A stretch of 62,140 nucleotides of DNA from Oligoflexales bacterium (lineage in GTDB: Bacteria; Bdellovibrionota_B; Oligoflexia; Oligoflexales; Bog-1112): NCBI GenBank assembly GCA_045105515.1, contig JBGCDR010000028.1, forward strand, positions 1 through 62,140, read 5' to 3'. Below the pieces are notes generated by a model. It saw only the letters and a program-made list of their open reading frames with translations, was not told the origin of the DNA and searched no databases. The translations under genes were made by a program, and so were the position numbers. Positions within the stretch are counted from its first letter, which is position 1, and each line of letters opens with the position of its first letter. Below are positions 9,134 through 57,787 of this stretch, in pieces.

Positions 9134-10546
9134 TTATCTTTTGTTGATTAAAATTTCATCAATTATATTCCGCCAATCGTTATCATCCTGTTTTAAAAGG
9201 AATAATTTGAAACCTTTTCTCTTTTGGGGAGCAAAACTAGATTGGCTTATTAGGATGCACGGACCAAAAAATCCATATGATTTTGCGCTTTCTACGAAAT
9301 TACTCTCAACAGCATCCCAGTTTTCGGCTTCCGGATCTTCGTGTTCTTCTCCATATCGGTCTACAATGACGCAATCAAACCAATCTCCTTTTTCAACTGC
9401 ATCAAAAAAATCGTCGATATGAGAGAAGGTTATAGTCTTAAAACCATGGGATTTAACGCTTCTGTCAATACTTTCTCTAATCGACTTAATATCATCAATA
9501 ATTGCAATGATTGGTGTTTTTAGATATTCAGAAGTAATATTGTTGTAAATTCTCTCAATACTTTTTCTTGGGATCTTGATTTCAACAATAGTTTCTTTTT
9601 CGCTAAAAGTATTTTTAATACTGCCATTTATCAGATCTAGCGCTGCATAAGTAATCTTCAAACCTCTGCGAGCATTTGAGTTAGGATTATTCATTTTTTT
9701 CTGATCAATAAGAGCTAGTTTTTTTCTGACTCTGTTTTTTGTGGTAATTATAATAAATTTATCATTGCTACGAGTCGCTATTTCAACTCTTCCATTAATG
9801 GTAAACCTCTTTGCATTCCTTAAAACATTGCAGAGCGCTAAGGATAGCGGTTGGTCATTTACACATATGTTTGCATCGTGAAATTTGTAATCAACAATTC
9901 GATTTGAGCAGTAAGATTTGGCAAGCATTTCAATAAGCACAGATAATTTTGGCGTATATTCATTCTTGTCTCCACATTTAAGCAGTAGCGCTACAGATTC
10001 GGCTGTACGCTTTTTAAAAGCTTTAATTTTGTCGTTTACAGATAGAAGGTACCCAGTTTCATGTGAGCTCCAATCTAAGTAAAATGCTGCTTCTTTTTTC
10101 GAAAAAAATGCAATAATTCTCGCTATAGCAGCTATTATCCCGGTAAACGCCAATAAGTTGCGGATGAAATAGAGCCAAAAAAACTCATTAAAAAATTTAA
10201 GAATAATGACAATTCCATGCTCTTTATAGTTAAGAACAAGATATTTTGTAAATATAAAATGTTGTTCAGTCCACTCAGTACTAGGTCTGATAGTTACCTG
10301 TTTTTTTAGGCCATTATCGCCAGATATGTTGTAATATTTACTATCAAATTTCCCTATAATTTCAAATTCAGTAAGCTGGCTAAAGGACCGCTGTAGAGAT
10401 TCAAGGTCTAGTCCAATCTGATTGTATTTTCCTTCTTTTAAAGACGTCATTGCCATTGGGATAAACGCGCTCTTAAAAACTCCGACATAATTTCCCAATT
10501 CCCATGTCACGAGCCATCCTGATAAAAAGAAGAATATGAAGAACAA
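9134..10546 (-). CDS. Hybrid sensor histidine kinase/response regulator (degenerate HATPase); start codon uncertain
   Basis: Two TM segments flanking a periplasmic domain; H-box-like SSHE; N-box CNVLRNAKRF; C-terminal receiver IAIIDD...CVIVD. Confidence 0.75.
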   Translation of the reverse strand: MFFIFFFLSGWLVTWELGNYVGVFKSAFIPMAMTSLKEGKYNQIGLDLESLQRSFSQLTEFEIIGKFDSKYYNISGDNGLKKQVTIRPSTEWTEQHFIFTKYLVLNYKEHGIVIILKFFNEFFWLYFIRNLLAFTGIIAAIARIIAFFSKKEAAFYLDWSSHETGYLLSVNDKIKAFKKRTAESVALLLKCGDKNEYTPKLSVLIEMLAKSYCSNRIVDYKFHDANICVNDQPLSLALCNVLRNAKRFTINGRVEIATRSNDKFIIITTKNRVRKKLALIDQKKMNNPNSNARRGLKITYAALDLINGSIKNTFSEKETIVEIKIPRKSIERIYNNITSEYLKTPIIAIIDDIKSIRESIDRSVKSHGFKTITFSHIDDFFDAVEKGDWFDCVIVDRYGEEHEDPEAENWDAVESNFVESAKSYGFFGPCILISQSSFAPQKRKGFKLFLLKQDDNDWRNIIDEILINKR

Positions 10547-12342: not shown

Positions 12343-12508
12343 AACTAACGACCTATTGGGGTCTGAATTTTTGATAAAAAAGCGTCTAAAACCTAAAACA
12401 TATCCATAATTATTAGAGGAATACGGAGTTTAGGCTGGATGCGCGAATTTAGAGTGAAATGTTTCGACTAACATGTTGTTTGATGCGGATTTTTGTCGAG
12501 TGAAAGCT

Positions 12509-15500
12509 ATGAATGTAGAGCAGACTATAAGAGAAAATTTTAGCGAAATTGAAGCGGTAGCCTCCGAGGTTGGGATTGATTTCTCCAAGGCCCAATACTT
12601 AGTGGATGGAAGGGATAAGTGGAAAAATAAGAATATACCCTTTCTAGATAAAAAAGATAAAGGTCGACTCTCACTTAATAGTAATATTCTAGGTAATAGC
12701 CTCATAATCACCTTTTGCAACAAGCGTGGTCATATGTCTGCGAGTTGGAGCTCAGGCAAAGATCAGGTCATTAGACTGATGCCTAAGCGTCGAATCAGAA
12801 CCGCAAGTCCCAAAAAAAAATGGTACAAAAAAGAGACTTTTGAGGTCTTCAATAAAAAGTACGATGAATGTGATGAGTGGACCGACTCAAGTCATTATAT
12901 GGTCAAAAAAGGCTTAGTGGGTCGAGTTAAATTCAAACGTATGAAAGACTGGGCTGGCGAATTTATCGCTGTGCCTATGTACAACGTATACGGTGAAATA
13001 AAGTCCTTTCAAAAAATATATGACAATGGTCGCAAGCGCTTTATATCGGCTCCTAAGACCGGATTATTCTATCCTACAAGTGAACTGTCACAAGAAACCG
13101 AGGTAATTGTCGTTGGGGAGGGCGTTGCTACCGTATTCGATGCTGCTGAAGCTTGGGATAAAAAAGCTGTAGGTGTTGCTGCCTTTGACTGCCAGAGTAT
13201 CCATTCGGTTGTAAAGAGACTTCGTGGGGCGTACCCAGATGCCAGGATCGTAATCGCTGCTGATAATGATATCGGCAAAAAAAGTGGTAATGCTGGGATG
13301 CTTGCAGCGCTTGAAGCCTCTTATCTTCTCAAAGTAAGTGTCAGATACCCCATAGCACTAAACGAAGGTGATCCAGTCACCGACTTTAATGACGTTAAAT
13401 CTACCTATGGCAAGGAAGAGCTTGAGAGGCAAATGAAAAAGAACGTGCTTAGGATCTCAAGAAGCGCTTTTGATTTTAATTTGCGAGCTCTTGCCTTCTC
13501 TGGTGAAGAAAAGTCCCCTAACTTCAAAAAACGCATGAGAAAAATCGTCGGGATCGCTATCCGTAATGGAATGGGAATCGATGAGATGATCGAAGCTATT
13601 GGAGTTGAAGACCCTGATGTTATAGACACCTACTATTCAATCATGAAAGGCCATGAAAAAAGAGTCGGGCGCTTCCATCAGGTCACTAAGGGCAAGTATG
13701 AGTATGCAAACTATGAGTCAATTGACCTAAAAAGAGAGGACCACGGCGGCTATACAATTACAGATGAAGCTGCTGAGCAGATAGCCCGAACTAAGGGAAT
13801 CGTGATCCTCGGAACCCCAATGGGTTCAAGCAAAACAGAAAAAGTAATCAAAAGGATATTTAACCTTTTCACCTTCGCTGCTTATTTATGCCACAGAGTA
13901 GGTTTAGCTGAGGAAGCTTCACATCGGCTTGAGATTAATTGCTACCGGAAGTTAGATGAAATGCAAATGGTGCTTGTGAAAAAAGTTGCCAGTTGTGTTA
14001 ACTCAATCAATAATGTCCTTTTTGGAGAAGGCAGTTACTTTCAAGGCTTAGAGTGTGTTGCAATTGATGAGATATCTAAGGTTCTTGACCATATTTGCGG
14101 TAAGACGGTCGAGGACCAAGAAGGTATTCTAGCTACTGTTAAGAAGATGCTAGCATCAACACCTCAAATACTTCTAGCTGATGCTGATGCGAGTGACCAT
14201 CTAATTGAGCAGATTCACGAGCTTGCTCCAGATCGTAAGATAACGGTTTTCAACCCTACTGAAGCACCTATGGACCATGTGCAAGTTAAACTTTGCTCTA
14301 ACAAAGATGCAGGCATGGAATATGTTGAGCGATTGGCACTTGAAAAAAAGAAAGTGCTAGTTGCTATGGACAGTAAGATTCAGTCTGAGAACCTTGCTAG
14401 AATATGCAAGAAAAAAGGACTTAAGGTTCTTTGCGTCACATCTGAAACCAAATCTTTCTGTAGCAAGGTTGGTTCATGGGTGATTAATCCAAGTCAAGAA
14501 AGCAAAAAATACGACGTAGTAATCTATACATCCGCTGTAGATTCAGGGGTTTCCGTTGTCTCAGATCATTTTGATGAAACAGTTGGAATCTTTAGAGGGG
14601 TTATCACCCCTGATTCCATAATTCAAATGATGGGCCGCAACAGAAAGGCTAAGCAGTGGTTTCTTGTTTGTGAGCCTTTTCGTCACACCGTTTTTGGAAA
14701 CAGTAGGACTGAGAAAGCAGATGCAGCAAAGCTTTCGTCTATAAAAACCTCTCTTGAAGCGGGAAATAAACCCGTTTCAGTGCCTAGCCTTACCGATTTA
14801 GATAAACTAATGATCTCAAGTGAGCATAGAAATCAAAAGCTAAAGCAAGATTATTTTGTGTCGCTCCAGGTTATGCTTGAGCAAAAAGGCTACAACGTCA
14901 ATCGAGTTGAACGACCCAAAGACATGCTTAAAAAAATAAAAGAGTCCCTAAAAGATGCCAACAGCGATAGGGTGCAGGAAAGCGTTGAGACTATCCTTGC
15001 TACAGAGGCTCCAGAGGAATCCGATTATATAAGGCTAAAGTCTCAATATACCATCACTGAAGAACAAGCCTGGAAAATCAAACGGTTCGAGGTCGAAAAT
15101 AGCCTTGGTAAAACAGATCTTTCCTCGGATGATGTTCTTTTCTCACTAGACAACGGTGGAAGAAGGGAGCTCATATTTGAGCTGCTTCATACTGACCAAA
15201 AAGATCTACTTGAGTACGATAAGTATGAACAGAAAAAGTTTGTCAGTGCAAAAAAGAGAAGGCACCTTTTTATAAAGGGAGAAATCCTTAAGAATCTATT
15301 TGAGGCACTTGACCTCGATATGGAAACGGGCGAAGGGACTTTTACCCATCATAAAGCACGCAAATTTATTGAGTACATCCAGTCTAATGACAAGCGGCGT
15401 GTCGTATGGAATGAACTAAACCTTGGACCTTACCTTGGAAAAAATTCAGAGCCATACTGTGCAACAACCTTTGTTAAGGCTATCTTCAAAAAGATGGGGC

Positions 15501-15847
15501 TCAAAACTGAATCACAAAAACGAACCAGAAAGAAACATTCATATCAGTCTATAATTCCCGAGTCATGGGAAACTATGATGGATTATAAAGCTTCACGATC
15601 CTTATCAGGAAAAAACGTAGCTAAGATTCCTAAGTCTGAGCTTGATAAATTAGACAGGGAACCCAAAGCGTCTGCAACACCTGAAAATGAGGAGAATTCA
15701 CTCATAAAAAATGGTGGAAATTATGGCGTTGATATTTGTATTTTGTGCAATGCCCATGTGGGCAATAAGGCTCAAATCTTAACTAATGGTAAATGTTCGG
15801 AATGCGTTAAGATGTTTAAACGACTTGGCCATAAACGCTCAGGTTGA
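12509..15847 (+). CDS. Primase-helicase replication protein (TOPRIM plus SF2 origin-binding-type helicase, C-terminal Cys4)
   Basis: VVGEGVAT, IAADND, TDFND TOPRIM motifs; PMGSSKT, VAIDE, VDSGVS, QMMGRNR helicase motifs; CILC...CSEC. Confidence 0.88.
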   Translation: MNVEQTIRENFSEIEAVASEVGIDFSKAQYLVDGRDKWKNKNIPFLDKKDKGRLSLNSNILGNSLIITFCNKRGHMSASWSSGKDQVIRLMPKRRIRTASPKKKWYKKETFEVFNKKYDECDEWTDSSHYMVKKGLVGRVKFKRMKDWAGEFIAVPMYNVYGEIKSFQKIYDNGRKRFISAPKTGLFYPTSELSQETEVIVVGEGVATVFDAAEAWDKKAVGVAAFDCQSIHSVVKRLRGAYPDARIVIAADNDIGKKSGNAGMLAALEASYLLKVSVRYPIALNEGDPVTDFNDVKSTYGKEELERQMKKNVLRISRSAFDFNLRALAFSGEEKSPNFKKRMRKIVGIAIRNGMGIDEMIEAIGVEDPDVIDTYYSIMKGHEKRVGRFHQVTKGKYEYANYESIDLKREDHGGYTITDEAAEQIARTKGIVILGTPMGSSKTEKVIKRIFNLFTFAAYLCHRVGLAEEASHRLEINCYRKLDEMQMVLVKKVASCVNSINNVLFGEGSYFQGLECVAIDEISKVLDHICGKTVEDQEGILATVKKMLASTPQILLADADASDHLIEQIHELAPDRKITVFNPTEAPMDHVQVKLCSNKDAGMEYVERLALEKKKVLVAMDSKIQSENLARICKKKGLKVLCVTSETKSFCSKVGSWVINPSQESKKYDVVIYTSAVDSGVSVVSDHFDETVGIFRGVITPDSIIQMMGRNRKAKQWFLVCEPFRHTVFGNSRTEKADAAKLSSIKTSLEAGNKPVSVPSLTDLDKLMISSEHRNQKLKQDYFVSLQVMLEQKGYNVNRVERPKDMLKKIKESLKDANSDRVQESVETILATEAPEESDYIRLKSQYTITEEQAWKIKRFEVENSLGKTDLSSDDVLFSLDNGGRRELIFELLHTDQKDLLEYDKYEQKKFVSAKKRRHLFIKGEILKNLFEALDLDMETGEGTFTHHKARKFIEYIQSNDKRRVVWNELNLGPYLGKNSEPYCATTFVKAIFKKMGLKTESQKRTRKKHSYQSIIPESWETMMDYKASRSLSGKNVAKIPKSELDKLDREPKASATPENEENSLIKNGGNYGVDICILCNAHVGNKAQILTNGKCSECVKMFKRLGHKRSG

Positions 15848-23656: not shown

Positions 23657-24007
23657 TTACATCTGCAGATGTTTCCTAGCCACCTTTACCAGCTCATCTA
23701 TTCCAAAAGGTTTTAGTAGTACATCGGAAAATAGCTCTGTATCAACTTTGTCTGCAAACCCAGTTATCAAGATCACCGGAAGCATCTCATCTTTTTCATG
23801 GATGGCCTTTGAAAGTTCTGCGCCATTCCATTTTGGCATAACGTAATCAGTGATGACAAGGTCTGGCTTGAATTTTTTATACATATTCCATGCAGACTTA
23901 CCATCGGATGCTTCTAAAACCTCTACATCAGAAAATTCGCTCTTTAAAGTTGAACCAATTGCATCTAAGAAGAAACATTCATCATCAACTAAAAGGACTT
24001 TCGACAT
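23657..24007 (-). CDS. Stand-alone response regulator (receiver domain)
   Basis: VLLVDD, PDLVITDYVMP, ITG, KPF. Confidence 0.92.
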   Translation of the reverse strand: MSKVLLVDDECFFLDAIGSTLKSEFSDVEVLEASDGKSAWNMYKKFKPDLVITDYVMPKWNGAELSKAIHEKDEMLPVILITGFADKVDTELFSDVLLKPFGIDELVKVARKHLQM

Positions 24008-43267: not shown

Positions 43268-43665
43268 TGAATGGAATCGTGTCGCAGGCCCTGTCTGTTT
43301 ATGACTCCAGCTATAAGCCTGCTTATGCAAAGCAATGTGATGTGAACATACCACCAAAAGCTAATTGGTGCGGGGTTTTTGCCGGATGGTTACTGACTAA
43401 GAATGGTTTTGAACTACCTCCAAGGCCGCAGGTTGCCAGGTCTTATCTGAAGGTAGGTAAGCCTGTAGAAGAACCGCAAATAGGCGATCTTGTGGTGTTC
43501 TGGAGGGTGGATCCAAAGGACTGGCGTGGGCACGTGAGCATATTTATTCGTGAAGATGAGTCAGGCATCTATTGTTTAGGTGGAAACCAACAAGGGAAAG
43601 TACAGATTGTTAAGTACAACAAGTTTAAACTATTAGGTTATAGGAGAATTCAAGATGAGTATTGA
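43264..43665 (+). CDS. TIGR02594-like NlpC/P60-CHAP peptidase, probable endolysin
   Basis: WCGVF, ARSYL.VG, GDLVVFWR, GHV, LGGNQ. Confidence 0.85.
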   Translation: MMNGIVSQALSVYDSSYKPAYAKQCDVNIPPKANWCGVFAGWLLTKNGFELPPRPQVARSYLKVGKPVEEPQIGDLVVFWRVDPKDWRGHVSIFIREDESGIYCLGGNQQGKVQIVKYNKFKLLGYRRIQDEY

Positions 43666-44194
43666 AAACATGACTAAGCTAGAAGTCAATGAAGACGGCA
43701 CCTACACAGTAAGCTGCAATAACAAATGTCAGACTGAAGTTGTTACTAAAAACGATGTTGTTCTGGGAGATATATGTCAACCAGAGTACCATGATGAAGG
43801 TGGAAGTTTTATACCTGTAGGGGGAGAATTTAAATTTACTTCGTACCAAGACACGGAAGAAAATAATTATGGCGAGCGAATACAATGTGAAATCGGCAGA
43901 ATGAGAATTGATAGGCTTTATACTTTGAATCGTCGTAGCAACCATCATCTTCTGCTAGTAAATGGCTGGCAATATCAGTGTTTGAGTAACTATAAAGATA
44001 GGTCATATGTATTTATTACACAGTACCCTAGGACCATTGTAAGTATCGACATCGATGATAATAACAAGCTCAAATTAATACAGATACAGGAAGAAAATAA
44101 ACATTGGCAAAATGGAATTGAAGGTCATTATAAAGACAATGATATTCTGAGGCTTGAATTGGAAAGGCGAGAGCTAAGAAAGAAGTCAGGTTGA
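43655..44194 (+). CDS. Hypothetical protein
   Basis: AGGAG RBS; overlaps the peptidase gene; ends the late operon. Confidence 0.6.
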   Translation: MSIENMTKLEVNEDGTYTVSCNNKCQTEVVTKNDVVLGDICQPEYHDEGGSFIPVGGEFKFTSYQDTEENNYGERIQCEIGRMRIDRLYTLNRRSNHHLLLVNGWQYQCLSNYKDRSYVFITQYPRTIVSIDIDDNNKLKLIQIQEENKHWQNGIEGHYKDNDILRLELERRELRKKSG

Positions 44195-44325
44195 TAGAGG
44201 CTTTGAAAAACTTATAAAACTGGATGTTTCTGGATGCACTATAGTACCTCAAACCTTCGGCGATGTGGGTTAAATCGAACCTCAGAGCTTTTGCCATCCG
44301 GCGACACAGGGGTAATTCTCCACCC

Positions 44326-44425
44326 TACCCCGAGGGTTTTTACCCATGTTTTTTTGCCTGAAAAAATAATGCTTGACATAGTAAAAGGGCTCTCATGAGC
44401 TGATAGAGCTATGTGAGTTGTCAAG
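44326..44425 (+). repeat. Left 100-bp inverted repeat unit (29-bp perfect arm plus CTTGACA-N40-TGTCAAG)
   Basis: 44326-44354 is the exact reverse complement of 46696-46724; the CTTGACA/TGTCAAG pair has identical offsets in both copies. Confidence 0.85.
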
Positions 44426-44617
44426 AGAAAAAATGGTAACTAAATTTAGTTAACTAAAAAAATACTAATATACTAAAAATCGTTAATAAAATCGGCGTCA
44501 TTCTTCTATTATTCAATTATAACTCAAAAATATGGATCGTGAAAGGCGGGATGTATTTAATTGGTTACTATATAAAATCATAAAAAAGTGAAAAAAAATA
44601 TTGAATGACCGGCGAAT

Positions 44618-44673
44618 AAAAAAGCCCCGCAACATAGGCGAGGCTGGAAAATAAAAAACCCGCTCAAAGCGGG
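44618..44673 (-). terminator. Two tandem intrinsic terminators for the minus-strand cluster
   Basis: A6-GCCCCGC...GCGAGGC and A6-CCCGCT-CAA-AGCGGG. Confidence 0.75.
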
Positions 44674-44752
44674 CTGGACAAATTATCAAGCTATTGCTAT
44701 GGTTTTAGGTGTTCAGAGGGAGCAAGGGCGGCAATCCTAAATCCTCTGAACA

Positions 44753-45220
44753 TCAACCCCATGTTCCGGCATTTTCCCATTCATAAGTACTCATAATATA
44801 GTTGTTTGACATGTTATAGCGAACCTCTTTCAATAGTTTGTAAATAGGGTGATTATCTTCCTGCTCATGATCCACTACTTGATACATGTAGCATGCTATA
44901 GCCTTAATCATCTCAATATCGCTATATTTGCGCCCCTTAGTTAGATTGCAGTTGTAACTGGGGTAATCCTCTGAACTGTCTTTATAACGGTGGTCAAACG
45001 ACTCTACATTGTGTAGCAATAGCCTTTCGCCTAGCTCTTGCATAGAACCTATTTCCAGGAGTTCAGGCCAAATGCTTACATAATACTCATGCTCAAGCCC
45101 TTTTCTAACTGGCCTGTTATCGCCAAGGTTCATAATTGATAGTAAGCTAGAACTGTTACCCCCAATAATAGCCATAACTACCGCGTCAATAGTTTCATTC
45201 CTTACTACAAAACAAGACAT
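44753..45220 (-). CDS. Hypothetical phage/plasmid protein
   Basis: MSCFVV, NVES...RY, KAIACYMYQ motifs; RBS AAGGGG. Confidence 0.7.
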   Translation of the reverse strand: MSCFVVRNETIDAVVMAIIGGNSSSLLSIMNLGDNRPVRKGLEHEYYVSIWPELLEIGSMQELGERLLLHNVESFDHRYKDSSEDYPSYNCNLTKGRKYSDIEMIKAIACYMYQVVDHEQEDNHPIYKLLKEVRYNMSNNYIMSTYEWENAGTWG

Positions 45221-45221
45221 A

Positions 45222-45680
45222 TTAAGCCCCTTTCTTCATTTCAAGTTCATATTCCAGGCCCTCTACAAAATCCCTTATTTCCGCTTCCCAGTAATACCTG
45301 CCGCTGACCTCGATGATTTGTTCACTTTCAATCAGATAGTCTAGGTGTTCACCTTTGCCATACTCATAATCACCGGGAGACATATTTTTTTGTAGGTCTG
45401 ATGGACTCCAAGTGTTGTAGCCCATTTTTACCTCTGGGTAACACTCATCTAGCATTAGATCATAGCTATCAGTTATACATGCAGGTTCTAAAGGCTCCTC
45501 ATCTAATAGAGTTTCAACAATATGATTAGTTCCCCACTCCACCCCATTATGGTCTTCTCTCATGAGATCGTCAGAACCACAGCGTTTACAGTGCGAACCT
45601 CTAACCCTGACATAGCAGGAATAACAAAATGGTTTAGATTTTTTGTAAGCAATCTTGTCTAAGCGTTCTAATAGTTCCAT
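45222..45680 (-). CDS. Hypothetical Zn-ribbon protein
   Basis: CYSC...CKRCGSDDLM; GGAG RBS before ATG 45680. Confidence 0.7.
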   Translation of the reverse strand: MELLERLDKIAYKKSKPFCYSCYVRVRGSHCKRCGSDDLMREDHNGVEWGTNHIVETLLDEEPLEPACITDSYDLMLDECYPEVKMGYNTWSPSDLQKNMSPGDYEYGKGEHLDYLIESEQIIEVSGRYYWEAEIRDFVEGLEYELEMKKGA

Positions 45681-45681
45681 T

Positions 45682-46176
45682 TTAAGCTCCGATATGTTGA
45701 ATATGATTTGATTTAAAACCTTTAGACCCATATTTGGTTCTGATATCTTCCATATCTAACTGCTTTCCATACCTCCTTTTTTGCGGCGCTGCTGTCCAAT
45801 ACCAAGCTATTTTCTTAGAGTGAAAACGAAAGCCAGCTTGCTTTAATGCTTCCTTGTGTTGCTTAGTGTCTCCTCTTACCCATAGCCAAGTTCCACAAAG
45901 CTCTATTTCAACACCTACAAGCCTACAAGCTAGCTCTATTGCCTCCGATAATTCCTCCGATAGATCGAGGTTAGTAAAACTGCTTCCTTCTCTTTCTATT
46001 GATTCTAGCGCTTTTAGAACGTCGTAAGCTTCGTTAATCAATTGCGTCATATGAAGGCCCGACGTGTTAACGTCTGGATGATAGCGTTTGATAAGCTGAA
46101 GATAGAGCCCTTTTAGACTTGTTTTATTTATGCTTTCCTCGATTCCGAAAACGTCCATGGCTTGATATTTGTTCAT
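45682..46176 (-). CDS. J-domain (DnaJ-like) protein of mobile elements
   Basis: RYHPD, INEAY, IELCGTWLWV.G.T..HKE.LK..GF, IR.KYGS. Confidence 0.85.
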   Translation of the reverse strand: MNKYQAMDVFGIEESINKTSLKGLYLQLIKRYHPDVNTSGLHMTQLINEAYDVLKALESIEREGSSFTNLDLSEELSEAIELACRLVGVEIELCGTWLWVRGDTKQHKEALKQAGFRFHSKKIAWYWTAAPQKRRYGKQLDMEDIRTKYGSKGFKSNHIQHIGA

Positions 46177-46553: not shown

Positions 46554-46624
46554 ATAATTAGGCAATAACGAAATATCGTATCTAAATTAAAATCGGAATA
46601 TGAGGTGTCGTTTCAAAATAAACA

Positions 46625-46724
46625 CTTGACAAAATCCATGCCCCTACGAGGCCCTTGTGAACAAATTGGAGTGTCAAGTACTTTTATTTCGTAAGAAAAA
46701 ACATGGGTAAAAACCCTCGGGGTA
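46625..46724 (-). repeat. Right 100-bp inverted repeat unit
   Basis: Partner of 44326-44425. Confidence 0.85.
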
Positions 46725-46951
46725 AATTTAAACGCCAAAAACGGGTTTTTATTATAGTGGTTTTAAAGGTGTATTCTGTACGATTGCCGAGAAAAGCAGT
46801 ACTGTAGTACCTAAAAAAACATCGATATTTATAGGCTTCCAAGAGTCTCGGATAATAGACCAGCAAGGTAAGTGCTGGGGGTAATCTTGCCACCAAAACT
46901 CAGGAAGGTTAGGTATGATTCTGGTGACACCTGGGATTTAGCGTGTGGGAG

Positions 46952-47255: not shown

Positions 47256-47522
47256 TTAAATTTTGAACTTCAGTTTCTTTAACCCTTTTTTTACATGAAT
47301 TTCTAGAACCTCTTTCCGGCTTCCGAGGGTTGTCACAGGTACTTGCAAGCTTCTCGCTGCCTCTGAGCTATTTCCTTCGCTTTCTTTGATGGCATGTGCT
47401 ATTAATGAAGCTTCAAACATGTGAACTATTTCTTTCATACCATGACTCTTAGCAATGGCTAACGCTTCTTCATCTACGAAATTAAGAATCTTTTCAAATG
47501 ATTTGTTTTTACTAATTTTCAT
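47256..47522 (-). CDS. Fis-like HTH protein, copy 1
   Basis: FEASLIAHAIKESEGNSSEAARSLQVPVTTL. Confidence 0.8.
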   Translation of the reverse strand: MKISKNKSFEKILNFVDEEALAIAKSHGMKEIVHMFEASLIAHAIKESEGNSSEAARSLQVPVTTLGSRKEVLEIHVKKGLKKLKFKI

Positions 47523-47668
47523 TGACTGACTCTTTTTAGTGATTGATTTACATAAAACTAAAAATCGCATAGTACCCAAAATATTCATGATTGCAATACG
47601 ATACTCATTGAAAAATAACCTATACAATGCAAAAATATGGTTGTTAAGACAATTTACAGGGGATCACT

Positions 47669-49999
47669 ATGATAAAATTAACTTTTCTTGGCGGTGCAGG
47701 GGCAATCGGGGCGTCTTCTACTCTTTTACAAGTGGATGACACGTCGATTGTCGTGGACTGTGGAGTTAGGTTTACGAAACTAAACCCACTTCCAGATTTA
47801 GACTCACTCTCAAATTGTAACCTTGATGCAATTCTAGTAACTCATGCTCACTCGGATCATACAGGTGGCCTACCTGTCTTGAGTGAAGCATACCCTCAAG
47901 CACCTGTTTATATGACTCCTCCAACCATGGATTTAGTTAGAGTACTGCAAAAAGACGCTCTAAAAATCATGAACTTGGAGGAACGAGAGCAGGATGTACC
48001 TCTATATAGTGAGAAGCAGGTAACCAAGTTACTTGAGAATATTAGACCAACACACATGTATGACAAGGTTGAGATAGGCCCAGTTACAGCAACCTTCTAC
48101 CCAGCTTCGCATATCATTGGTGCATCTATGATCCACATAGATACTCCCTATGGTCACTTATTGTTTTCCGGTGATTACTCAGTGACCGCTCAAAAAACTG
48201 TTCCTGGTCTGGATATTCCAAAGATTCCAGTGGACCTGTTCATAACCGAATCGACCTATGGCGACAGACTACACTCAGACAGAAAGACAGCAGAAGCTAA
48301 ATTGGTCTCTACGGTGCAGTCCACCATAGAAGAAGGTGGAAAGATTCTGATTCCAGCTTTTGCGATTGGAAGGGCTCAGGAGGTTATCACTATCTTAAAG
48401 CAAGCTATTGCTAATAAGAAGTTGCAAGCTGTGAATATTTACGTTGATGGAATGGTACGCCCTGTTTGCAATATCTATGGAGATCATCCAAGGTATGTAA
48501 CCTCCTATATTGAAAGACAATCCCGTAAAGGGCACGCTTTCTATAGCAAGCATATCAAGCCAGTTTTTCCAAAAGACAGAAAGCTAATCTGTGGGGGTGA
48601 TCCATGTGTTATCATCTCTTCTTCTGGCATGTTGTCCGGTGGCCCTTCTGCTTTCTATGCTGAAAAGCTAGCAGATGATGAAAGAAATAATATCGTTATC
48701 ACAGGCTACCAAGATGAAGAGTCACCAGGACGAGCTTTGCTTAATTTACTTAGTGATAAAAGTGCAGATCGAACTATTAAGGTAAACGGAAAGCTCCTAC
48801 CTATCAAATGTAAGGTAAGTTCCTATAGTCTCTCAGCTCATGCAGATAGAATGCAAATGGTCGGGCTTATAGACAAACTCTCACCTAAAACAGTAGTACT
48901 TGTTCACGGGGATGAGAAAGCAAAACAAACCTTTGCAGATAGCCTACAAGGACTGGATATAGTCAGTGCTACTGAGGGTATGACTATCGAGAGGAAATAC
49001 CCACGACGAAAGATTGCATTAAAGCCTAAGTTAAATAGGACAGTCTTGATAAATCTTTCTGAGTCTGGAAAGGGCTCTTATAGCCTAGATCAGCTAATAG
49101 ATTTAGCGGTTAGTGGGGATGTTGACCCTAGTCATCGAGATGGTTTGAAAAAAGAGATTATTGCTACAAGTCTGTTTTACTTTGGTGAATCTAGCGATAT
49201 CTTGCACTCTGCAGCTAAACTTAAGGAAGACAGTCCAGAAGTCACGGAAGTAGATCAAGAAATACTCAAAGAGAACCCCAAGGGTAGACTGCTTGAATTA
49301 TGCATGAAAGCAAAGGTTCCAGCTCCCCAATGCAACCGGATTGACAAGGGAAGAGATCATCACGTTACAGTCACCTTAACAATTGATGATAAGCAAGAGA
49401 CTTCCGAAACCTTCGTATCAACTAAGCTCATGCTTGCGACACAAAGAGCTTACAAAGATATTCTTGAGAAGTTTAAAGACGAGCTTATGAAAAAGATAGA
49501 GGGTCTAAAGGTCGCTCCAGCGGGTTCTTTTCAGTCTCCATTGGCCGAATTGCATGAGCTATGCCAACGTAGCAATATTAAAATGCCAGTCGTGAAAGTG
49601 CTTCCCTCTACTCCAGATAGATTTTCTCTTGAGGTCTCCCTTTTTATTGGTTCTCACAAGATTGGGTCACATATTGCTCATGGATCATCTAAGAAAGAGG
49701 CTAAATTAGAAGCCTACAAGCATTTGTTAGCCGAGTACGGCGACACACTAAGAAAGAAAATCGTGTCTGGCAATGCCAATCTGTTCAAGGATTACAAAAG
49801 CGAGCTTTTCATGCTATGCAGTCAGAGGAGGGTTTCGCCGCCGCAGTTCTTTGTCAAAACTGCTGAGAATGGATTTGAGGTATCAGGCCAGCTTAATCTT
49901 GGAGGTGAGCAAATCACTACCGAAGGCTTCCCTTGCTCCACACATAAGCAGGGCCAACAGCTCGTTTCTGAGGATATACTATCGCAAATCCATACATGA
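47669..49999 (+). CDS. MBL/beta-CASP ribonuclease fused to three C-terminal dsRNA-binding motifs
   Basis: VDCG, HAHSDH, SGD, ESTYG, SAHAD, VHG; three dsRBM-like repeats (NPKGRLLELC, SPLAELHELCQ...SKKEAK, DYKSELFMLCS). Confidence 0.88.
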   Translation: MIKLTFLGGAGAIGASSTLLQVDDTSIVVDCGVRFTKLNPLPDLDSLSNCNLDAILVTHAHSDHTGGLPVLSEAYPQAPVYMTPPTMDLVRVLQKDALKIMNLEEREQDVPLYSEKQVTKLLENIRPTHMYDKVEIGPVTATFYPASHIIGASMIHIDTPYGHLLFSGDYSVTAQKTVPGLDIPKIPVDLFITESTYGDRLHSDRKTAEAKLVSTVQSTIEEGGKILIPAFAIGRAQEVITILKQAIANKKLQAVNIYVDGMVRPVCNIYGDHPRYVTSYIERQSRKGHAFYSKHIKPVFPKDRKLICGGDPCVIISSSGMLSGGPSAFYAEKLADDERNNIVITGYQDEESPGRALLNLLSDKSADRTIKVNGKLLPIKCKVSSYSLSAHADRMQMVGLIDKLSPKTVVLVHGDEKAKQTFADSLQGLDIVSATEGMTIERKYPRRKIALKPKLNRTVLINLSESGKGSYSLDQLIDLAVSGDVDPSHRDGLKKEIIATSLFYFGESSDILHSAAKLKEDSPEVTEVDQEILKENPKGRLLELCMKAKVPAPQCNRIDKGRDHHVTVTLTIDDKQETSETFVSTKLMLATQRAYKDILEKFKDELMKKIEGLKVAPAGSFQSPLAELHELCQRSNIKMPVVKVLPSTPDRFSLEVSLFIGSHKIGSHIAHGSSKKEAKLEAYKHLLAEYGDTLRKKIVSGNANLFKDYKSELFMLCSQRRVSPPQFFVKTAENGFEVSGQLNLGGEQITTEGFPCSTHKQGQQLVSEDILSQIHT

Positions 50000-50029: not shown

Positions 50030-50467
50030 ATGCAGATTCATACCAATGATGGGCCAATCGAAATACTAGGGTTCAAAAGAAATGAAAAAATCAGGGCTGA
50101 AGTTTCAAAAAGCTATCAAGCTGATGATGAAATGGATCAGTTAAAAATGGATGCTATCATGTCTATTGCAAAACTTATGGATGATGCGTTTCAGTATGAT
50201 AGCGCTGAAGATTGGCAAGCCTTCTCAGACCAGGATGGTGAAAAGCTCAAGGAAATTGGACAAAACCTCTACTCTAAAGGCGGTATGCCGTTAATGCTCA
50301 GGACTGTTGACGAATTATGGACCTGTATAAATCTTGGGATTGAGAAGAAAGTTCCAGGCATAAAACCACTAGAACACTATGAAATGTGCGTAAAAGAGCT
50401 TGATTGGATTTGGAATAGGATAGGCAACCTCGAAGGTGAGCCGATCAAAGATTACTGGATTTGCTAA
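50030..50467 (+). CDS. Hypothetical protein (shares a domain with 11989-12342)
   Basis: AAGGA RBS; IGQNLYSKGGMPLM, WNRIG. Confidence 0.7.
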   Translation: MQIHTNDGPIEILGFKRNEKIRAEVSKSYQADDEMDQLKMDAIMSIAKLMDDAFQYDSAEDWQAFSDQDGEKLKEIGQNLYSKGGMPLMLRTVDELWTCINLGIEKKVPGIKPLEHYEMCVKELDWIWNRIGNLEGEPIKDYWIC

Positions 50468-50478: not shown

Positions 50479-50679
50479 ATGGGAGAAGAACCTACTTACG
50501 AAACGGGCCAGGAAAGGACTGAGAGGCTTAAGCGTGAGCAGAAGGAGCGAAAGAAAGAATCTACACTCCAAGCCAAAGCCATGAAGAAAATGCGCGAGCA
50601 GAAGGCTTATGAGGACGAAATGCAAGCGAAGTTTGCTAAACTGAATGGCATGATTAAGAAAGGGTCTGATCTAGCCTAA
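50479..50679 (+). CDS. Small charged helical protein
   Basis: AAGGAGG RBS before ATG 50479. Confidence 0.6.
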   Translation: MGEEPTYETGQERTERLKREQKERKKESTLQAKAMKKMREQKAYEDEMQAKFAKLNGMIKKGSDLA

Positions 50680-51614: not shown

Positions 51615-51878
51615 CTATTTTAGTTTTATAAATTTTTCCATTTTTTCAACTAGAACCTTGAGGGTAAGTTTTCTGCTCCCAAGTGTTGTAACTGGTGTTT
51701 TTAAACTTCTAGAAGCTGATGAGTTGTTTCCGTCTTGTTCATGGATTGCAAGGGCAATAAGAGCTGATTCAAATAATTGGACAGTTTCTTTCATTCCGTA
51801 TTGCTTAGCAATAGCAAGCGCTTCCTCATTGACGAAATTAAAGATTTTGTTAGCAGATTTTTTTTTCGTAATTTTCAT
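51615..51878 (-). CDS. Fis-like HTH protein, copy 2
   Basis: FESALIALAIHEQDGNNSSASRSLKTPVTTLGSRK; GAGGA RBS. Confidence 0.8.
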   Translation of the reverse strand: MKITKKKSANKIFNFVNEEALAIAKQYGMKETVQLFESALIALAIHEQDGNNSSASRSLKTPVTTLGSRKLTLKVLVEKMEKFIKLK

Positions 51879-52248
51879 AAAAATCCTCTTAATGTTTGAG
51901 CATGGCAAAATATTAAATGTGCGAAAAATAGTCAATATGAAATGAGGTGTGTTCTCGAAGCTAGTGATGAAACAAATATTACCAAAACATTTTGGATGGG
52001 AATTATTTTAATTGGAACATATTAATAATGCGTTCACTTGTTCGAGGTTTTTTGAACACTAAGCAGTATGGTGAGCCAAATGTTAGACAAAATACTTCCA
52101 ATGAATATTTTCAACTCTATTCATAGCTGAAAAACATGGTCAAATAAAGTGCAAACTGATATTCGTAATGGCGATTATGGTTTTTTGAACACTTTGAAGC
52201 TAAACAATAATTAATTATTTGTTGTGTCTTAGAACAAAAATAGAATGT

Positions 52249-53205
52249 TTAAGATCGTTGCAGGTCTCTCAAATCTGCAATGCTCGGAACCCATGTTTGG
52301 CCCTTTTTTGCTGAAGAATCAATTTTGGGATGTTCTTCCTCAACTTTTCCTGCACCTTGAAATAGTCGGGAAAATGATCCTTCAGCTTCACCAAACGACA
52401 GAGCTTTTATCTGAGTTAAATGAGAGATATCTTTCAATGACGACTCTAGAATCTCGATTGTTGTAAATAAAAGGTCACTGTTAAGGTTCTCCAAGAACCA
52501 TCCATACATTGACTCATTTTCCGGAATTTCCAGATTATCACTCAAGTTTCTTTGAATTCCTGTCGACAACTCAATCGCCACAACGTTTCCTTTATGCTTT
52601 TCTCTATTCTTAGGTGGTAACGAAGCATCTATTTTTCCACGTAATTGATGCATATTCGCATGAATTAAAGCACTACGAAGTTCAGATATCGCCTTAAAAC
52701 GCTGTTCAATGCGAGGAAATTTTTTCTTAATATCCTCAATCACAACCGAAAGATCTCTTTGCTCAGTAAATTTCCCCCTTTTATTTTTAGAATTTTTTTC
52801 GGAATTAGGTTTGAATGGATTAACGCCAACCCGGTCTGCAAAAAAACGAAGATGAGTTTCCCATAAGCAAGCGATGGCACAAGCTTGAGTATACACATAC
52901 ATTTTCCCTTTAAGAATCGAATCAATGTTTAAGTCAATCCTTTCTTTTAGACCTTTTCCCCCACGAATCTTGAAAATCTCTGTAACTAAACGATCTGCAG
53001 CAGCACTTATTTGGAGGTCATTATGAACCCCTGAGAACTGGAACTCTTTTTCAAATATTTCAAGTATTAAGCCTCGAACAGCATCTTCTTCTAGAATGTA
53101 CTCAACATTATTGGAGGGTGGAGACATAAGTGTTTTCCAGGAGTATTTCTGTGTTTTTAGAAAATTTTTTAACCGTTTTAAAATAGTCATTTTGGAGCAG
53201 CTCAC
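52249..53205 (-). CDS. Hypothetical protein with HEPN-like RxxxxH motif (start may be 53127)
   Basis: WETHLR upstream helix and ELRSALIH. Confidence 0.5.
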   Translation of the reverse strand: MSCSKMTILKRLKNFLKTQKYSWKTLMSPPSNNVEYILEEDAVRGLILEIFEKEFQFSGVHNDLQISAAADRLVTEIFKIRGGKGLKERIDLNIDSILKGKMYVYTQACAIACLWETHLRFFADRVGVNPFKPNSEKNSKNKRGKFTEQRDLSVVIEDIKKKFPRIEQRFKAISELRSALIHANMHQLRGKIDASLPPKNREKHKGNVVAIELSTGIQRNLSDNLEIPENESMYGWFLENLNSDLLFTTIEILESSLKDISHLTQIKALSFGEAEGSFSRLFQGAGKVEEEHPKIDSSAKKGQTWVPSIADLRDLQRS

Positions 53206-53235
53206 CGAATTATTTTTTGTTCTTAAGTACTCATA

Positions 53236-53291
53236 TTAAGCATCATAACTTTTGGTAAAACCACCAAATTGAAATTCTCAACTTGCCTCCC
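53236..53291 (+). repeat. 56-bp recombination-site-like repeat, copy 1
   Basis: TTAAGCA...TTTGGT-AAAACC-ACCAAA...TTCTCAACTTGCCTCCC. Confidence 0.8.
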
Positions 53292-53364
53292 TCAAAAAAA
53301 ATAGAAAATAATGTCAAACTCTTCGTGTGAGGAGAATTGATCTGTTAGATTTTAAAATACAGAT

Positions 53365-54402
53365 CTAACTTAAATCGTTAATACATTCACTTATTTTATT
53401 AAATCCATTAGAGTATTCTCGTGTAGGTTCACCAAGAATTGGGATAAGATTGGATTTAGCAGCACCAACACCATCTATTTTTTTTCCATCTGAAAAGTCA
53501 ACCAAGTACCATTCCTTGATTCGTGATTTTATTTCCTGTAACAAGTCATTTGCATCTTTATCTTTCCCACCGTATCCACATACAATCAGTTTAATCTTTT
53601 CTGAATCTTTACTAAGACAGCTGAGTCTATCTTTATGAATTTTTGGCATTAAGAATTCATATTTAGATGGTAGAGGCAACACCATAGCAGGTATTAACAA
53701 TTCGGAAACCTTGTTATGACTTTTTATTTCCCCTCCAAAATTTCCTTCTATCACCCTGATATAATCATCAAGATTACTGTCCCAATCTGTATGAGAGATT
53801 AGTTGAATCACTTTTGAAAAAGGCAAATTAGGACTTGGGCCATTCAAATATTTACGCCCCCAATTTACGCAACCATGAAGCTTGAAATAGTTAATTTTAT
53901 TATTGATATTCAGGTAATTATCAACATTATCTAGCTGCTGGCTGGTGATATTTTCAATCGCTTTATCAAGAAAGGTATCATAGTTTAGGTTTAATAGGAC
54001 AATTGAATCAGTATTAGGCTTCTGAATTAGCTTTTGGAGGAAAAATGTATATGCAGAGACTGGATTTGAATCCTTCTGAAAATAAAGTTTACCTATACGA
54101 CGGAAAAGTCCATGAAGATACAATAATAGAGACAGCCTTTGAACTCTGATTTCGTGAATTTTGCTCGACCATTTCTCTTCCATGAAACTCTCTAGGTTAA
54201 AGCCAGGTTCTTTTGAATCAAACCTAGCTTCTGATACCAAACCAGAGCACATAGGAAAATTGTTTTGCACCTGAGAGAATCGAGTATCAAATATTTCATG
54301 GACCAAGGGAGGCTTCCATATTTTATGATTCCCATTGAGAGTAGACACACCTGGTATGTAGCAATCCATTGATGCCCCCGCTCCAAACAAAATCCAATAC
54401 AT
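53365..54402 (-). CDS. SIR2-like domain protein, probable defence NADase
   Basis: ILFGAGAS, LNLNYD, FKLHG, CGYG. Confidence 0.82.
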   Translation of the reverse strand: MYWILFGAGASMDCYIPGVSTLNGNHKIWKPPLVHEIFDTRFSQVQNNFPMCSGLVSEARFDSKEPGFNLESFMEEKWSSKIHEIRVQRLSLLLYLHGLFRRIGKLYFQKDSNPVSAYTFFLQKLIQKPNTDSIVLLNLNYDTFLDKAIENITSQQLDNVDNYLNINNKINYFKLHGCVNWGRKYLNGPSPNLPFSKVIQLISHTDWDSNLDDYIRVIEGNFGGEIKSHNKVSELLIPAMVLPLPSKYEFLMPKIHKDRLSCLSKDSEKIKLIVCGYGGKDKDANDLLQEIKSRIKEWYLVDFSDGKKIDGVGAAKSNLIPILGEPTREYSNGFNKISECINDLS

Positions 54403-55864: not shown

Positions 55865-57787
55865 TTATATCCTGGCCCAGCCGCCTTCACCATTGCTTTC
55901 ATTTTGTGATGTGACTGATCTTATTTCATTTTTGATTTCTTGGTTCAATTTACGCTGAATTGAGTGAACATTATCATTATCATTATCATTATCATTACTG
56001 ATAACTTGATCTTTGTTTTTCGATCCGTAGAGAATGAGAGAAAGTCTTGAAACTATTTCCGTCAAACTGATTGCAATAAGATCTAATCGTTCAGCTTCGG
56101 ATGAGTTATTTTTAGCAGCACTTTCGTTTCTTTGTGTGCCTTCATCAAGCCTACTCATTGAATCAGCGATCTGAGAAACACCTAAAGATTGCTCTTTTGA
56201 TGCTGCAAGAATTTGTTCTCCATTAGACTTTAATAGGTCTGATGATTCTGATATTTTTTCAAAAAGTGCACTTGTTTTGTTGACTATATCAAGACATAAA
56301 GAAACTTTTTTATCATTATTGTTTGTGAGCACTTGAGCTTCTTTTATTGAGTTTTTTACAATTGATCCTATTTCAGAGGAAGCTTTTCCGCTTGACTTTG
56401 CTAAAGAGCTAACTTCTTGAGCAACTACTGAAAAACCTCTACCGTGCTCTCCTGCTCTTTCGGCTTCGACTGAAGCGTTAAATGACAAGAGTCTTGTTTG
56501 GAATACGATTTCGTCAATTATTTGGGTTTTTTCGCCTATTTTCCCAATAATATCAACTAGTTTTTTTATCTCTTGATTACTTTTTGAGAGTTGATCAACT
56601 GAATCGAGTAATTCACTATTAAGTTGACAACCTCCTTGAGTTGTTTCATATATTAGGTTAGATACCTCTTGTGATTTTTCTGATGTATTCAGATTGTTTT
56701 TGACCATTGCAGCGACTTGTTCTACTGAAGAAGCAACCAACGTTATGGAGTCAGACTGCTCGGAATTTAGATCTGCCAATGACTTGCTTGATTTAGAGAG
56801 TTCACGTGAAGATTTTCTGATACTTTCAGATGATTCTACTAGTTTTAGAGCTTCAATTTCAATAGATCTTGATATCTTCTTAACCATAAATACTACAACT
56901 AGTATCATTAATAACGCTAGCATTAAAAAAGTCAGACTTGAAACCAGAAGACCGTAGTTTACTTCCGCTATTAAAGCGGTTTCATCGGAAAAATAGATAA
57001 ACTTGTAGTCTTTTAGAAAAATATCATTTGTATCCAAATCAATTATTTTTTTTACCCAATCTTTTGTCAATATTGATTCACTATTGCTAGAATCTTCTTG
57101 ACCACTAATATTACTATTTTTAATAAACTTTTCGATTGCTCTTGAATCGTCCTCTGAAGTAAAAGTATTATCATCATTGGAGAAATATGAAGGGTTTCCT
57201 ATCTTTTTATAAAATAAATTTGTAACAGTTTCTATTGGAAAAATTAATATGTATACATATGAGATTTCTTCGTCTTCATTTTCACCAGGTAGGAGGGATG
57301 CAAAATACGATCCCTCATTTGTGCTCACTTGAATAACTGATTTCTGTTCGTTTTCTAGAGATTTTCTTAGTTGTTTCTTTATAGAATTAACGTCAACTAT
57401 TGCTTCCTCTTTTTTTAAACTGTAACTTGTTATTATCGAATTGGTTTGACCAGAAAAGACACTGATTTGCCTTAATCCGTATGAACTATTCAATAAATTT
57501 GCTACTCCAAAAACACCCATTCCAAATTCATTACTTCTTTCTTCTCTGTTATCATTTTCTAACGATAAAATGATTTTTTCTGACACAGCGTTGCTAAAGC
57601 TAATAGATATTTCGTTCGAAATAGAATCAATGACTTGACCAAGAGAAACTAGTTTCTCGTTTTTCAATTTTTCCTCAAAAATAACTTTAATTTTGTTATT
57701 TAAGGTATAAATCGTTGTCATCGACACTAAAATTAATGCCAATGCAGTTGCTACTATTAGGAACACTAATTTTTTACTCAACGACAT
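55865..57787 (-). CDS. Methyl-accepting chemotaxis protein
   Basis: Two TMs; IVFQTRLLSFNASVEAERAGEHGRGFSVVAQEV hairpin. Confidence 0.95.
   Translation of the reverse strand: MSLSKKLVFLIVATALALILVSMTTIYTLNNKIKVIFEEKLKNEKLVSLGQVIDSISNEISISFSNAVSEKIILSLENDNREERSNEFGMGVFGVANLLNSSYGLRQISVFSGQTNSIITSYSLKKEEAIVDVNSIKKQLRKSLENEQKSVIQVSTNEGSYFASLLPGENEDEEISYVYILIFPIETVTNLFYKKIGNPSYFSNDDNTFTSEDDSRAIEKFIKNSNISGQEDSSNSESILTKDWVKKIIDLDTNDIFLKDYKFIYFSDETALIAEVNYGLLVSSLTFLMLALLMILVVVFMVKKISRSIEIEALKLVESSESIRKSSRELSKSSKSLADLNSEQSDSITLVASSVEQVAAMVKNNLNTSEKSQEVSNLIYETTQGGCQLNSELLDSVDQLSKSNQEIKKLVDIIGKIGEKTQIIDEIVFQTRLLSFNASVEAERAGEHGRGFSVVAQEVSSLAKSSGKASSEIGSIVKNSIKEAQVLTNNNDKKVSLCLDIVNKTSALFEKISESSDLLKSNGEQILAASKEQSLGVSQIADSMSRLDEGTQRNESAAKNNSSEAERLDLIAISLTEIVSRLSLILYGSKNKDQVISNDNDNDNDNVHSIQRKLNQEIKNEIRSVTSQNESNGEGGWARI

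Follow-up and report, generated by a model that had tools for sequence, protein, structure and literature searches.

Endonucleolytic and 5'-3' exonucleolytic action on single-stranded RNA is established for CPSF73, aCPSF1, TTHA0252 and RNase J, and double-stranded RNA-binding domains (dsRBDs) bind A-form duplex without sequence preference. Passages of two papers likewise describe the relatives of the catalytic core considered here as endonucleases and 5'-3' exonucleases that take single-stranded RNA (PMC3553952; PMC8501993). Here we report a bacterial gene in which such a core and three dsRBDs are parts of one predicted protein. The gene, referred to below as the nuclease, lies at 47669..49999 (+) of contig JBGCDR010000028.1 from an Oligoflexales bacterium (assembly GCA_045105515.1), on what appears to be a phage-plasmid. 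This contig of 62,140 bases, from a 6.29-Mb draft genome, was analysed in its entirety and is called the window. The nuclease frame opens with an ATG, 7 nt downstream of a GGGGA, and encodes 776 amino acids plus stop; its product comprises a putative beta-CASP ribonuclease, a winged-helix-like domain and the three dsRBDs.

Among described enzymes, aCPSF1/FttA and CPSF73 (2xr1, 2ycb, 3af5, 9bct, 2i7t) possess the same metallo-beta-lactamase (MBL)/beta-CASP/RMMBL core with all its motifs, and superpose on the nuclease with a root-mean-square deviation (rmsd) of 2.3-3.1 A over about 460 columns. In aCPSF1, as in the nuclease, the core is joined to RNA-binding domains, but these are two N-terminal KH domains, which bind single-stranded RNA; the nuclease has none and carries instead a C-terminal winged-helix-like domain and three dsRBDs. 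Unlike aCPSF1 and CPSF73, moreover, it is bacterial and resides on a mobile element. TTHA0252 of Thermus thermophilus (431 aa; 2dkf, 3iek) is bacterial, stand-alone and built on the same core (template-modelling score by target 0.88), but it is a bare core to which no RNA-binding domains are appended. The closest known functional analogue would be the RNase J of land-plant chloroplasts, a beta-CASP ribonuclease that, like the nuclease, has an extra C-terminal dsRNA-binding domain, named GT1 (PMC12825314). That enzyme belongs to the RNase J branch and its dsRNA binder is a trihelix domain, whereas the nuclease belongs to the CPSF73 branch and has dsRBDs; the likeness is one of convergent design, and GT1 is not a homologue of the nuclease arm. 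The dsRBD fold itself is common to the arm, RNase III and the TRBP, Loquacious and R2D2 proteins, the arm aligning best to TRBP. RNase III cuts both strands of a duplex by its own catalytic domain, whereas the core of the nuclease is, by analogy, of a single-strand-specific metallo-nuclease type. Finally, Cas14 of type VII CRISPR-Cas (8yhd, 9j9e) has a homologous beta-CASP core and reaches its RNA target by way of an accessory module, although its targeting relies on a guide RNA and that of the nuclease would rely on protein domains.

The catalytic core occupies residues 1-440 (47669..48988, +). Pfam places Lactamase_B at residues 14-180 (54 bits), Beta-Casp (PF10996) at 236-357 (83.1 bits against a cut-off of 27.7; E 2.9e-23) and RMMBL (PF07521) at 377-427 (52.5 bits against a cut-off of 21.6). 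A first, sequence-only reading of the locus had described the MBL/beta-CASP motifs as intact, which holds: ten metal-binding or catalytic residues, arranged as D30; H59-x-H61-x-D63-H64; H148; D169; E194 (A); H391 (B); and H413 (C), are invariant across 141 aligned family sequences, the window's copy included. We take these ten to be MBL motifs 1-4 (D; HxHxDH; H; D) followed by beta-CASP motifs A (D/E), B (H) and C (H), the motif definitions for this group reportedly going back to Callebaut et al. in 2002. The best NCBIfam model is aCPSF1 (E 1.1e-96) and the next is Cas14 (E 5.6e-76), both with scores far under their equivalog cut-offs and with the RNase J models lower still. Searched against PDB sequences, the core matched aCPSF1 (2xr1_A, E 4.4e-65; also 2ycb and 3af5), CPSF73 (2i7t_A, E 7.1e-57), Cas14 (8yhd_H, E 7.2e-53) and TTHA0252 (E 1.6e-43), and further FttA (9bct_J), IntS11 and Ysh1. 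The full-length model superposed in Foldseek on Pyrococcus horikoshii aCPSF1 (3af5) with E 1.9e-40 and an rmsd of 2.3 A over 471 columns. By motifs, Pfam families and fold, the nuclease is a beta-CASP core of the CPSF73/aCPSF branch.

Narrower identities within this branch and beside it were considered and rejected. The match to aCPSF1 (TIGR03675) reaches 324.5 bits against a cut-off of 580.2 and extends only over profile positions 175-613; since it starts at position 175, the N-terminal KH region is absent from the nuclease. The RNase J models TIGR00649 and NF047419 give 58.2 bits against 400 and 48.1 bits against 820, respectively. For type VII Cas14 (NF045584) the score is 256.2 bits against a cut-off of 800; the window holds no CRISPR-like array, TRF finding in it only three short tandem repeats, and neither Cas7 nor Cas5 is named in the Pfam, PHROGs and PADLOC scans of its open reading frames (ORFs). 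Elsewhere in the host genome, contig C13 (2733-4022, -) carries a second beta-CASP protein devoid of dsRBDs, a 466-aa ORF 28% identical to the nuclease core.

Downstream of the core, the sequence-only reading had seen a linker and three dsRBM-like repeats. Short flexible linkers are indeed predicted at residues 519-523, 615-621 and 701-705, where the predicted local distance difference test (pLDDT) falls below 50 in the full-length AlphaFold2 (AF2) model, but the stretch ahead of the repeats, residues 441-536, is no plain linker, as it holds a winged-helix-like domain at residues 457-514 (49037..49210, +). DSSP assigns it an H-E-H-H-E-E topology in the AF2 models, an alpha-beta-alpha-alpha-beta-beta order, and the domain is kept across the family alignment. 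The domain is named from this topology only, its Foldseek matches to winged helix-turn-helix regulators being weak (ranks 31 and 47; prob 0.5-0.6), and the family wing motif GLVRRDD is degenerate in the window's copy.

The three repeats bear out the second half of that description. On the whole protein, Pfam reports dsrm (PF00035) with E 1.9e-15; scanned as separate pieces against the dsrm cut-off of 23, residues 537-601 score 23.1 bits, residues 627-689 score 35.3 bits (E 1.8e-8) and residues 709-773 score 14.0 bits, so that judged by their letters two repeats appear credible and the third weak. Structure prediction settles the matter in favour of three dsRBD folds: dsRBD1 (residues 537-612; 49277..49504, +), dsRBD2 (624-700; 49538..49768, +) and dsRBD3 (709-775; 49793..49993, +) are each modelled as alpha-beta-beta-beta-alpha in two AF2 predictions, the last with a pLDDT of about 90. 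These predictions are the full-length model (141-row alignment; mean pLDDT 88.6, predicted template-modelling score 0.64) and a model of residues 441-776 (13-row family alignment; mean pLDDT 80.4). Comparison of the C-terminal model with the PDB by Foldseek yielded 23 matches at E <= 1e-3, the best of which are multi-dsRBD proteins, among them dsRNA-binding partners of Dicer and Drosha. The first is TARBP2 in a Dicer complex (7zpk_C, E 6.6e-10, 259 columns), followed among the leading matches by Loquacious-PB, R2D2, DCL3, MLE, DGCR8 and PKR; Aquifex RNase III is listed just below the threshold.

A GPxH loop and a KKxAK sequence at the start of helix 2 are the canonical RNA-contact motifs of dsRBDs. 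In the window's protein, GPxH is absent from all three dsRBDs and KKEAK is found solely in dsRBD2, the most canonical of the repeats, whose helix 2 begins SSKKEAKLEA (KKxAK-type). This pattern departs from that of the family, where GPxH is found in dsRBD3 of 117 of the 140 relatives and a dibasic start of helix 2 in dsRBD3 of 135, both missing here; conversely, [KR]K at the start of helix 2 of dsRBD2 occurs in only 24 of the 140. dsRBD1 retains the N-terminal family motif NPKGxLLExC and its helix 2 starts with STKLML, with a single lysine. The net charges of dsRBD1, dsRBD2 and dsRBD3 are +2, +1 and -2.

The fusion is not peculiar to this element. A HMMER search with residues 441-776 against 1.84 billion representatives returned 36 hits at E <= 1e-3; excluding P0002, Pfam assigns beta-CASP with dsrm to 12 of the remaining 35, RNB with dsrm to 8, dsrm alone to 12 and no family to 3. 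Among longer proteins, a C-terminal profile retrieved 88 clusters at E <= 1e-5, all with beta-CASP and 86 with a precomputed dsrm. From the other end, a search with residues 1-440 alone found 3579 proteins at E <= 1e-40 among 8000 candidates scored, and 105 of the best 120 core relatives listed carry dsrm (precomputed Pfam); these 120 are 51-59% identical to the window's core, except P0002 (90%), P0130 (71%) and P0131 (63%), and identity to family members outside the genus is 51-71%. With our own hidden Markov models (HMMs), the C-terminal module was detected in 186 of the 191 stored proteins whose family core is nearly complete. Four of the five exceptions lack any module match and have tails that look truncated or frameshifted, while P0218 matches the start of the module only. 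The nuclease aligns over its full length, colinearly and in the same domain order, with 140 members at 34-80% identity. At least 186 protein clusters in our sample form an orthologous family defined by the fusion, which is not unique to the phage-plasmid.

The same C-terminal search bears on a general premise of the sequence-only reading, namely that bacterial dsRBMs classically sit on RNase III. They are not confined to it, RNB fusions accounting for 8 of the 35 hits. These eight proteins (P0007, P0008, P0017, P0019, P0026, P0029, P0032 and P0035) have an exoribonuclease of the RNB (RNase II/R) type and, behind it, two or three dsRBDs that resemble those of the window's protein, an unexpected architecture.

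Family members with a source name come from Thermoguttaceae, Pirellulaceae, Planctomycetes/Planctomycetota, Polyangiaceae, Myxococcota, Deltaproteobacteria, Eisenbacteria, Tectomicrobia, Latescibacteria, Marinimicrobia, Chitinivibrionales, Pseudobdellovibrionaceae and Oligoflexales, often from uncultured lineages. Several lie on contigs of 1.37, 1.42, 1.81, 3.98, 4.29, 6.42, 8.0 and 9.1 Mb and are, given such lengths, chromosomal. We fetched 46 metagenome loci, 31 of which contain the family gene. When the 138 neighbours were clustered, none was common to three or more of these 31 loci; what is shared comes from near-duplicate loci, apart from one sulfatase pair and one integrase pair that we regard as chance pairs. 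After two near-duplicates were dropped (L042 and L044, of L040 and L043), Pfam on the 128 neighbours at the remaining 29 loci showed mostly ordinary chromosomal genes: Dus, SurA-type peptidyl-prolyl isomerases, Mfd, hemA/hemL/hemB, hisD, RF3, KsgA, sulfatases and transporters. A minority belong to mobile or conflict functions, that is, integrases (L013, L019), a type I restriction-modification system (L014), a BrnT toxin (L017) and a transposase-type integrase (L026). No operon partner emerges, and the gene is a stand-alone one.

Database names for the family are automatic only, such as 'MBL fold metallo-hydrolase', 'putative dsRNA-binding protein' or 'Cft2 family RNA processing exonuclease/dsRNA-specific ribonuclease'. 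Our literature search, outside which most subscription journals and supplements fell, found no description of a bacterial beta-CASP + dsRBD protein, and the fusions given in part of a HEPN survey are other ones, for example HEPN-RNase III-dsRBD, with none of beta-CASP and dsRBD among them (PMC3710099). The family is sizeable yet apparently unstudied.

Within it, the window's copy is a diverged one. In a FastTree phylogeny of the core, built from 141 sequences with the host's other beta-CASP protein as outgroup, the window's protein (P0001) falls within the family, as a member of the clade (P0130,(P0001,P0002,P0038)), with support 1.0 and long branches leading to it (0.17 + 0.29 + 0.23). Its orthologue in G012, a genome of the same genus, aligns across the 776 residues without any indel. 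Amino-acid identity between the two falls from 0.90 in the core to 0.57 in residues 441-536, with 0.64, 0.75 and 0.74 for the successive dsRBDs, and nonsynonymous divergence (dN) rises from 0.06 for the core to 0.15-0.32 for the arm. With synonymous divergence saturated, these dN values indicate purifying selection on every part of the nuclease. The arm is evolving faster than the core, and the RNA-contact motifs of the window's clade are, as the alignment reads, rearranged.

With regard to its distribution, no full-length counterpart of the nuclease was found in the plasmid and phage collections: 410 of 72,556 plasmids match the core and 27 of 50,697 phage records give a match, and none covers 80% or more of the protein. 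Pattern scans of IMG/VR gave no relative with the single C-terminal sequence and no full-length relative with the profile, the latter returning one weak single-domain match (L008). L005, a weak match to the single C-terminal sequence in viral/genome contigs, does not match the family HMMs and was discarded as unrelated. Within the host's order, the C-terminal part is present in 2 of 95 genomes, the host (G000) and G012; in the host's phylum, 4 of 131 genomes match the module at E <= 1e-10. Of these, only the same two have it in full and with close similarity; the match in G103 is a 770-aa frame that includes the three dsRBDs, and those in G062 are fragments. None of the 301 genomes sampled from the phylum of G131, whose record is titled Verrucomicrobiota, matches at E <= 1e-30. 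The host carries a separate RNase III gene. The caveat of the sequence-only reading, that the architecture might be a common chromosomal housekeeping form, thus applies in part: many family members sit on contigs of 1-9 Mb among ordinary chromosomal genes, yet the family is patchy rather than universal. In the lineage of the host itself, it does not have the standing of a housekeeping gene. The nuclease is a diverged, mobile member of a mostly chromosomal family.

We think it rather probable that the nuclease is a stand-alone ribonuclease tethered to duplex or structured RNA and captured as an accessory gene by the phage-plasmid. In this model, a metallo-ribonuclease core of the CPSF73/aCPSF1 type would be joined by short flexible linkers to an arm made of the winged-helix-like domain and the three dsRBDs. 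The arm would bind A-form duplex, in the window's copy probably chiefly via dsRBD2, and would thereby park the enzyme on RNAs that form long sense-antisense duplexes or are strongly structured. Because a flexible three-dsRBD arm would hold the enzyme on the duplex, the core could cut the adjacent single strand, either a single-stranded flank or the 5' end beside the duplex, and could then trim in the 5'-3' direction. The gene itself would be a diverged copy captured in the manner of a moron by an N15/VP882-type phage-plasmid, and the enzyme would probably adjust how element or host transcripts that are structured or antisense-paired are turned over. The sequence-only reading had already pictured a nuclease recruited to structured or sense-antisense RNA, and this part agrees with the folds and motifs; the fusion is not special to the phage-plasmid, the family being mostly chromosomal.

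Several points weigh against such a role. By their motifs, dsRBD1 and dsRBD3 appear to have lost the canonical RNA contacts in this clade, dsRBD3 with a charge of -2, and owing to this loss the arm may bind RNA more weakly or may bind another ligand. A SIR2-like gene lies about 3.4 kb from the nuclease in the accessory region, which also fits a conflict role. Rfam gave no match over the whole window. Finally, 'RNA turnover' names a kind of function and not a pathway that has been demonstrated.

The sequence-only reading had listed defence, anti-defence and action against RNA phages among the possible roles. The nuclease would then be an effector that destroys the duplex RNA of invading phages, such as replication intermediates and convergent transcripts, or host immune RNAs, such as CRISPR RNA (crRNA) precursors, retron noncoding RNA (ncRNA) and antitoxin RNAs. 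Its place among the accessory genes of a phage-plasmid, not far from the gene for a SIR2_2 protein that weakly matches Aga_SIR2, would suit this role, as would its long, fast-evolving branch with reshuffled RNA-binding motifs, the integrases, type I restriction-modification system and BrnT toxin that adjoin some chromosomal relatives, and the precedent of the related Cas14, an immune nuclease. The direct signs run the other way. For the nuclease, PADLOC-DB 2.0 gives as best match LmuA, with E 0.0015 and confined to residues 23-73 at the MBL N-terminus, which is noise; among the 128 neighbours at the 29 loci, housekeeping and metabolic genes are in the majority; the family has no conserved partner gene and the window no CRISPR array; and the plasmid, phage and viral-contig scans found no full-length copy. 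Defence and anti-defence are left unsupported by these results, and we hold such a role to be rather unlikely.

A related and somewhat more doubtful idea confines the conflict role to the fast-evolving copy, which would have turned into an RNA-level weapon, that is, a protein-guided nuclease that recognises long duplex RNA and destroys the transcripts attached to it. The duplex might arise when a competing phage transcribes convergently or replicates its RNA, or the nuclease might recognise structured RNAs that serve host immune systems, and the conserved K/E-rich ORF of 66 aa downstream of the gene could be a regulator of the nuclease. If this were true, bacteria would possess a dsRNA-triggered nuclease unrelated to RNase III.

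It is also possible, although we give it little credence, that in this clade the dsRBD folds have lost dsRNA binding and serve as protein-protein or dimerisation modules (type-B), which would make the enzyme a general single-strand ribonuclease. In proteins of the TRBP type the third dsRBD has a protein-binding role, and in the window's protein dsRBD3 is without GPxH and the dibasic helix 2, dsRBD1 has its single lysine and the charges of the repeats are low to negative. Against this loss of function stands dsRBD2, whose canonical KKEAK, at a place where 24 of 140 relatives have the like, is a gain that looks like compensation and not loss; all three dsRBDs are, in addition, under purifying selection and free of indels.

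A role in transcription termination appears quite improbable. A 'torpedo' factor of this kind, like aCPSF1/FttA as the closest solved relatives and like RNase J1, would cleave RNA as it is being made and pursue the polymerase, possibly where the element has hairpin-rich terminators. Sequence and structure searches do place aCPSF1 and FttA among their best matches, the latter in a pre-termination complex (9bct_J), and a review argues, in the part concerned, that beta-CASP enzymes generally act so (PMC8501993). The nuclease, on the other hand, lacks the N-terminal KH domains of aCPSF1/FttA and scores 324.5 bits where the aCPSF1 model asks for 580.2, and nothing here ties it to RNA polymerase. 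A DNA nuclease of the SNM1/Artemis kind, acting in recombination or DNA degradation, is scarcely credible: beta-CASP enzymes include DNA nucleases and NCBIfam reports a weak match to ligase-associated exonuclease (78.9 bits against a cut-off of 325), but the RMMBL RNA-specificity domain is present, the appended domains belong to a class of dsRNA binders, motif C is a histidine (H413), which reportedly marks the RNA-acting branch according to Callebaut et al. in 2002, and the PDB relatives listed either process RNA as nucleases or belong to RNA-processing complexes.

An enzyme of the CPSF73 type that three dsRBDs direct to its target would give bacteria, alongside RNase III, a different way of clearing or processing duplex RNA, and the family offers a testable case of how a single-strand-specific nuclease handles double-stranded substrates. 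Its occurrence in many uncultured lineages, where it appears unstudied, adds to this interest, and the phage-plasmid copy with its rearranged RNA-binding motifs shows that mobile elements can acquire such enzymes. The window's gene is compact and intact and is suited to expression and assay.

The element that carries the nuclease is defined by replication, partition and virion genes. Family scans identify ParB (124-1011, -) and ParA (1024-1899), and RepA (12473-15847, +) is 23-29% identical, over 80-82% of its length, to the RepA of VP882, phiHAP-1, PY54 and phiKO2, which we take to be linear phages; it is also related to 'CyRepA1' plasmid replication proteins. The element further encodes an exonuclease/RecT/RusA set and, by Pfam and PHROGs, a lambda-like head module and a P2-like contractile tail, with genes for terminase, portal, protease, capsid, sheath, tube, tape measure and baseplate. 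The joint presence of ParA/ParB, RepA and complete head and tail modules supports its reading as an N15/VP882-like phage-plasmid. No protelomerase was recognised by Pfam in the window ORFs, the ORF at 2297-4450 included, and the contig ends show no terminal overlap. The contig starts within 3.3 copies of a 35-nt tandem repeat (1-114; 98% matches) that adjoins parB and looks like a centromere or iteron array, and the assembly may have broken there. Beside parA, ORFs of 717 and 344 aa (2297-5460, +) matched no family.

The nuclease is located in the accessory region, 3' of the tail genes. Upstream, and transcribed divergently, is a gene for a small Fis-type helix-turn-helix (HTH) protein (47256..47522, -; Pfam HTH_8, E 8.1e-6), its start at 47522 being inferred from a paralogue. 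The divergent intergenic region (47523..47668) has promoter-like hexamers at 47608-47636 and 47644-47673, which are consensus matches only, 20 such sites having been found against 17.2 expected in shuffles. The paralogue (51615-51935, -) is 62% identical to the HTH protein, and the pair brackets the nuclease operon and three genes of no assigned family after it; G012 has one homologue of the HTH protein (L067).

Downstream, ORF145 (50030..50467, +) begins 30 nt 3' of the nuclease stop with AAGGA ahead of it, and ORF66 (50479..50679, +) follows 12 nt past ORF145 behind a strong ribosome-binding site, AAGGAGG. The nuclease is likely co-transcribed with both, neither of which has a family (Pfam at E <= 1; no ESM Atlas score >= 0.8) or a PADLOC match, ORF66 having been scanned there as a longer frame of 72 aa. 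ORF66 is rich in lysine, glutamate and arginine, and its nearest structural matches are long helices. In G012 an ORF66 homologue (56% amino-acid identity; L007, 2527-2721) stands directly 3' of the nuclease and ORF145 is missing. Complex prediction for the nuclease with ORF66 (score 0.00, mark 0.32) is evidence neither way.

The assembly of G012 is fragmented and, on another contig, it has homologues of window 43288-46176, which makes it probable that a related element is present there. Upstream of the HU gene of the window, about 100 nt of intergenic sequence (46624-46729) has two matches in opposite orientation on G012 contig C334, at 79% identity, and may be a small repeated element.

Two further groups of genes complete the cargo of the element. 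A 345-aa SIR2_2-domain protein, with weak PADLOC matches to Aga_SIR2 (best E 6.3e-8), is encoded next to a 318-aa protein of no family (52249-54402, -), and the two are a possible defence gene pair. The element also carries signalling genes, an unusual cargo for a phage-plasmid: a methyl-accepting chemotaxis protein (55865-57787, -) and a stand-alone receiver domain (23657-24007, -), as well as a 470-aa protein (9134-10546, -) with faint GHKL and receiver matches.

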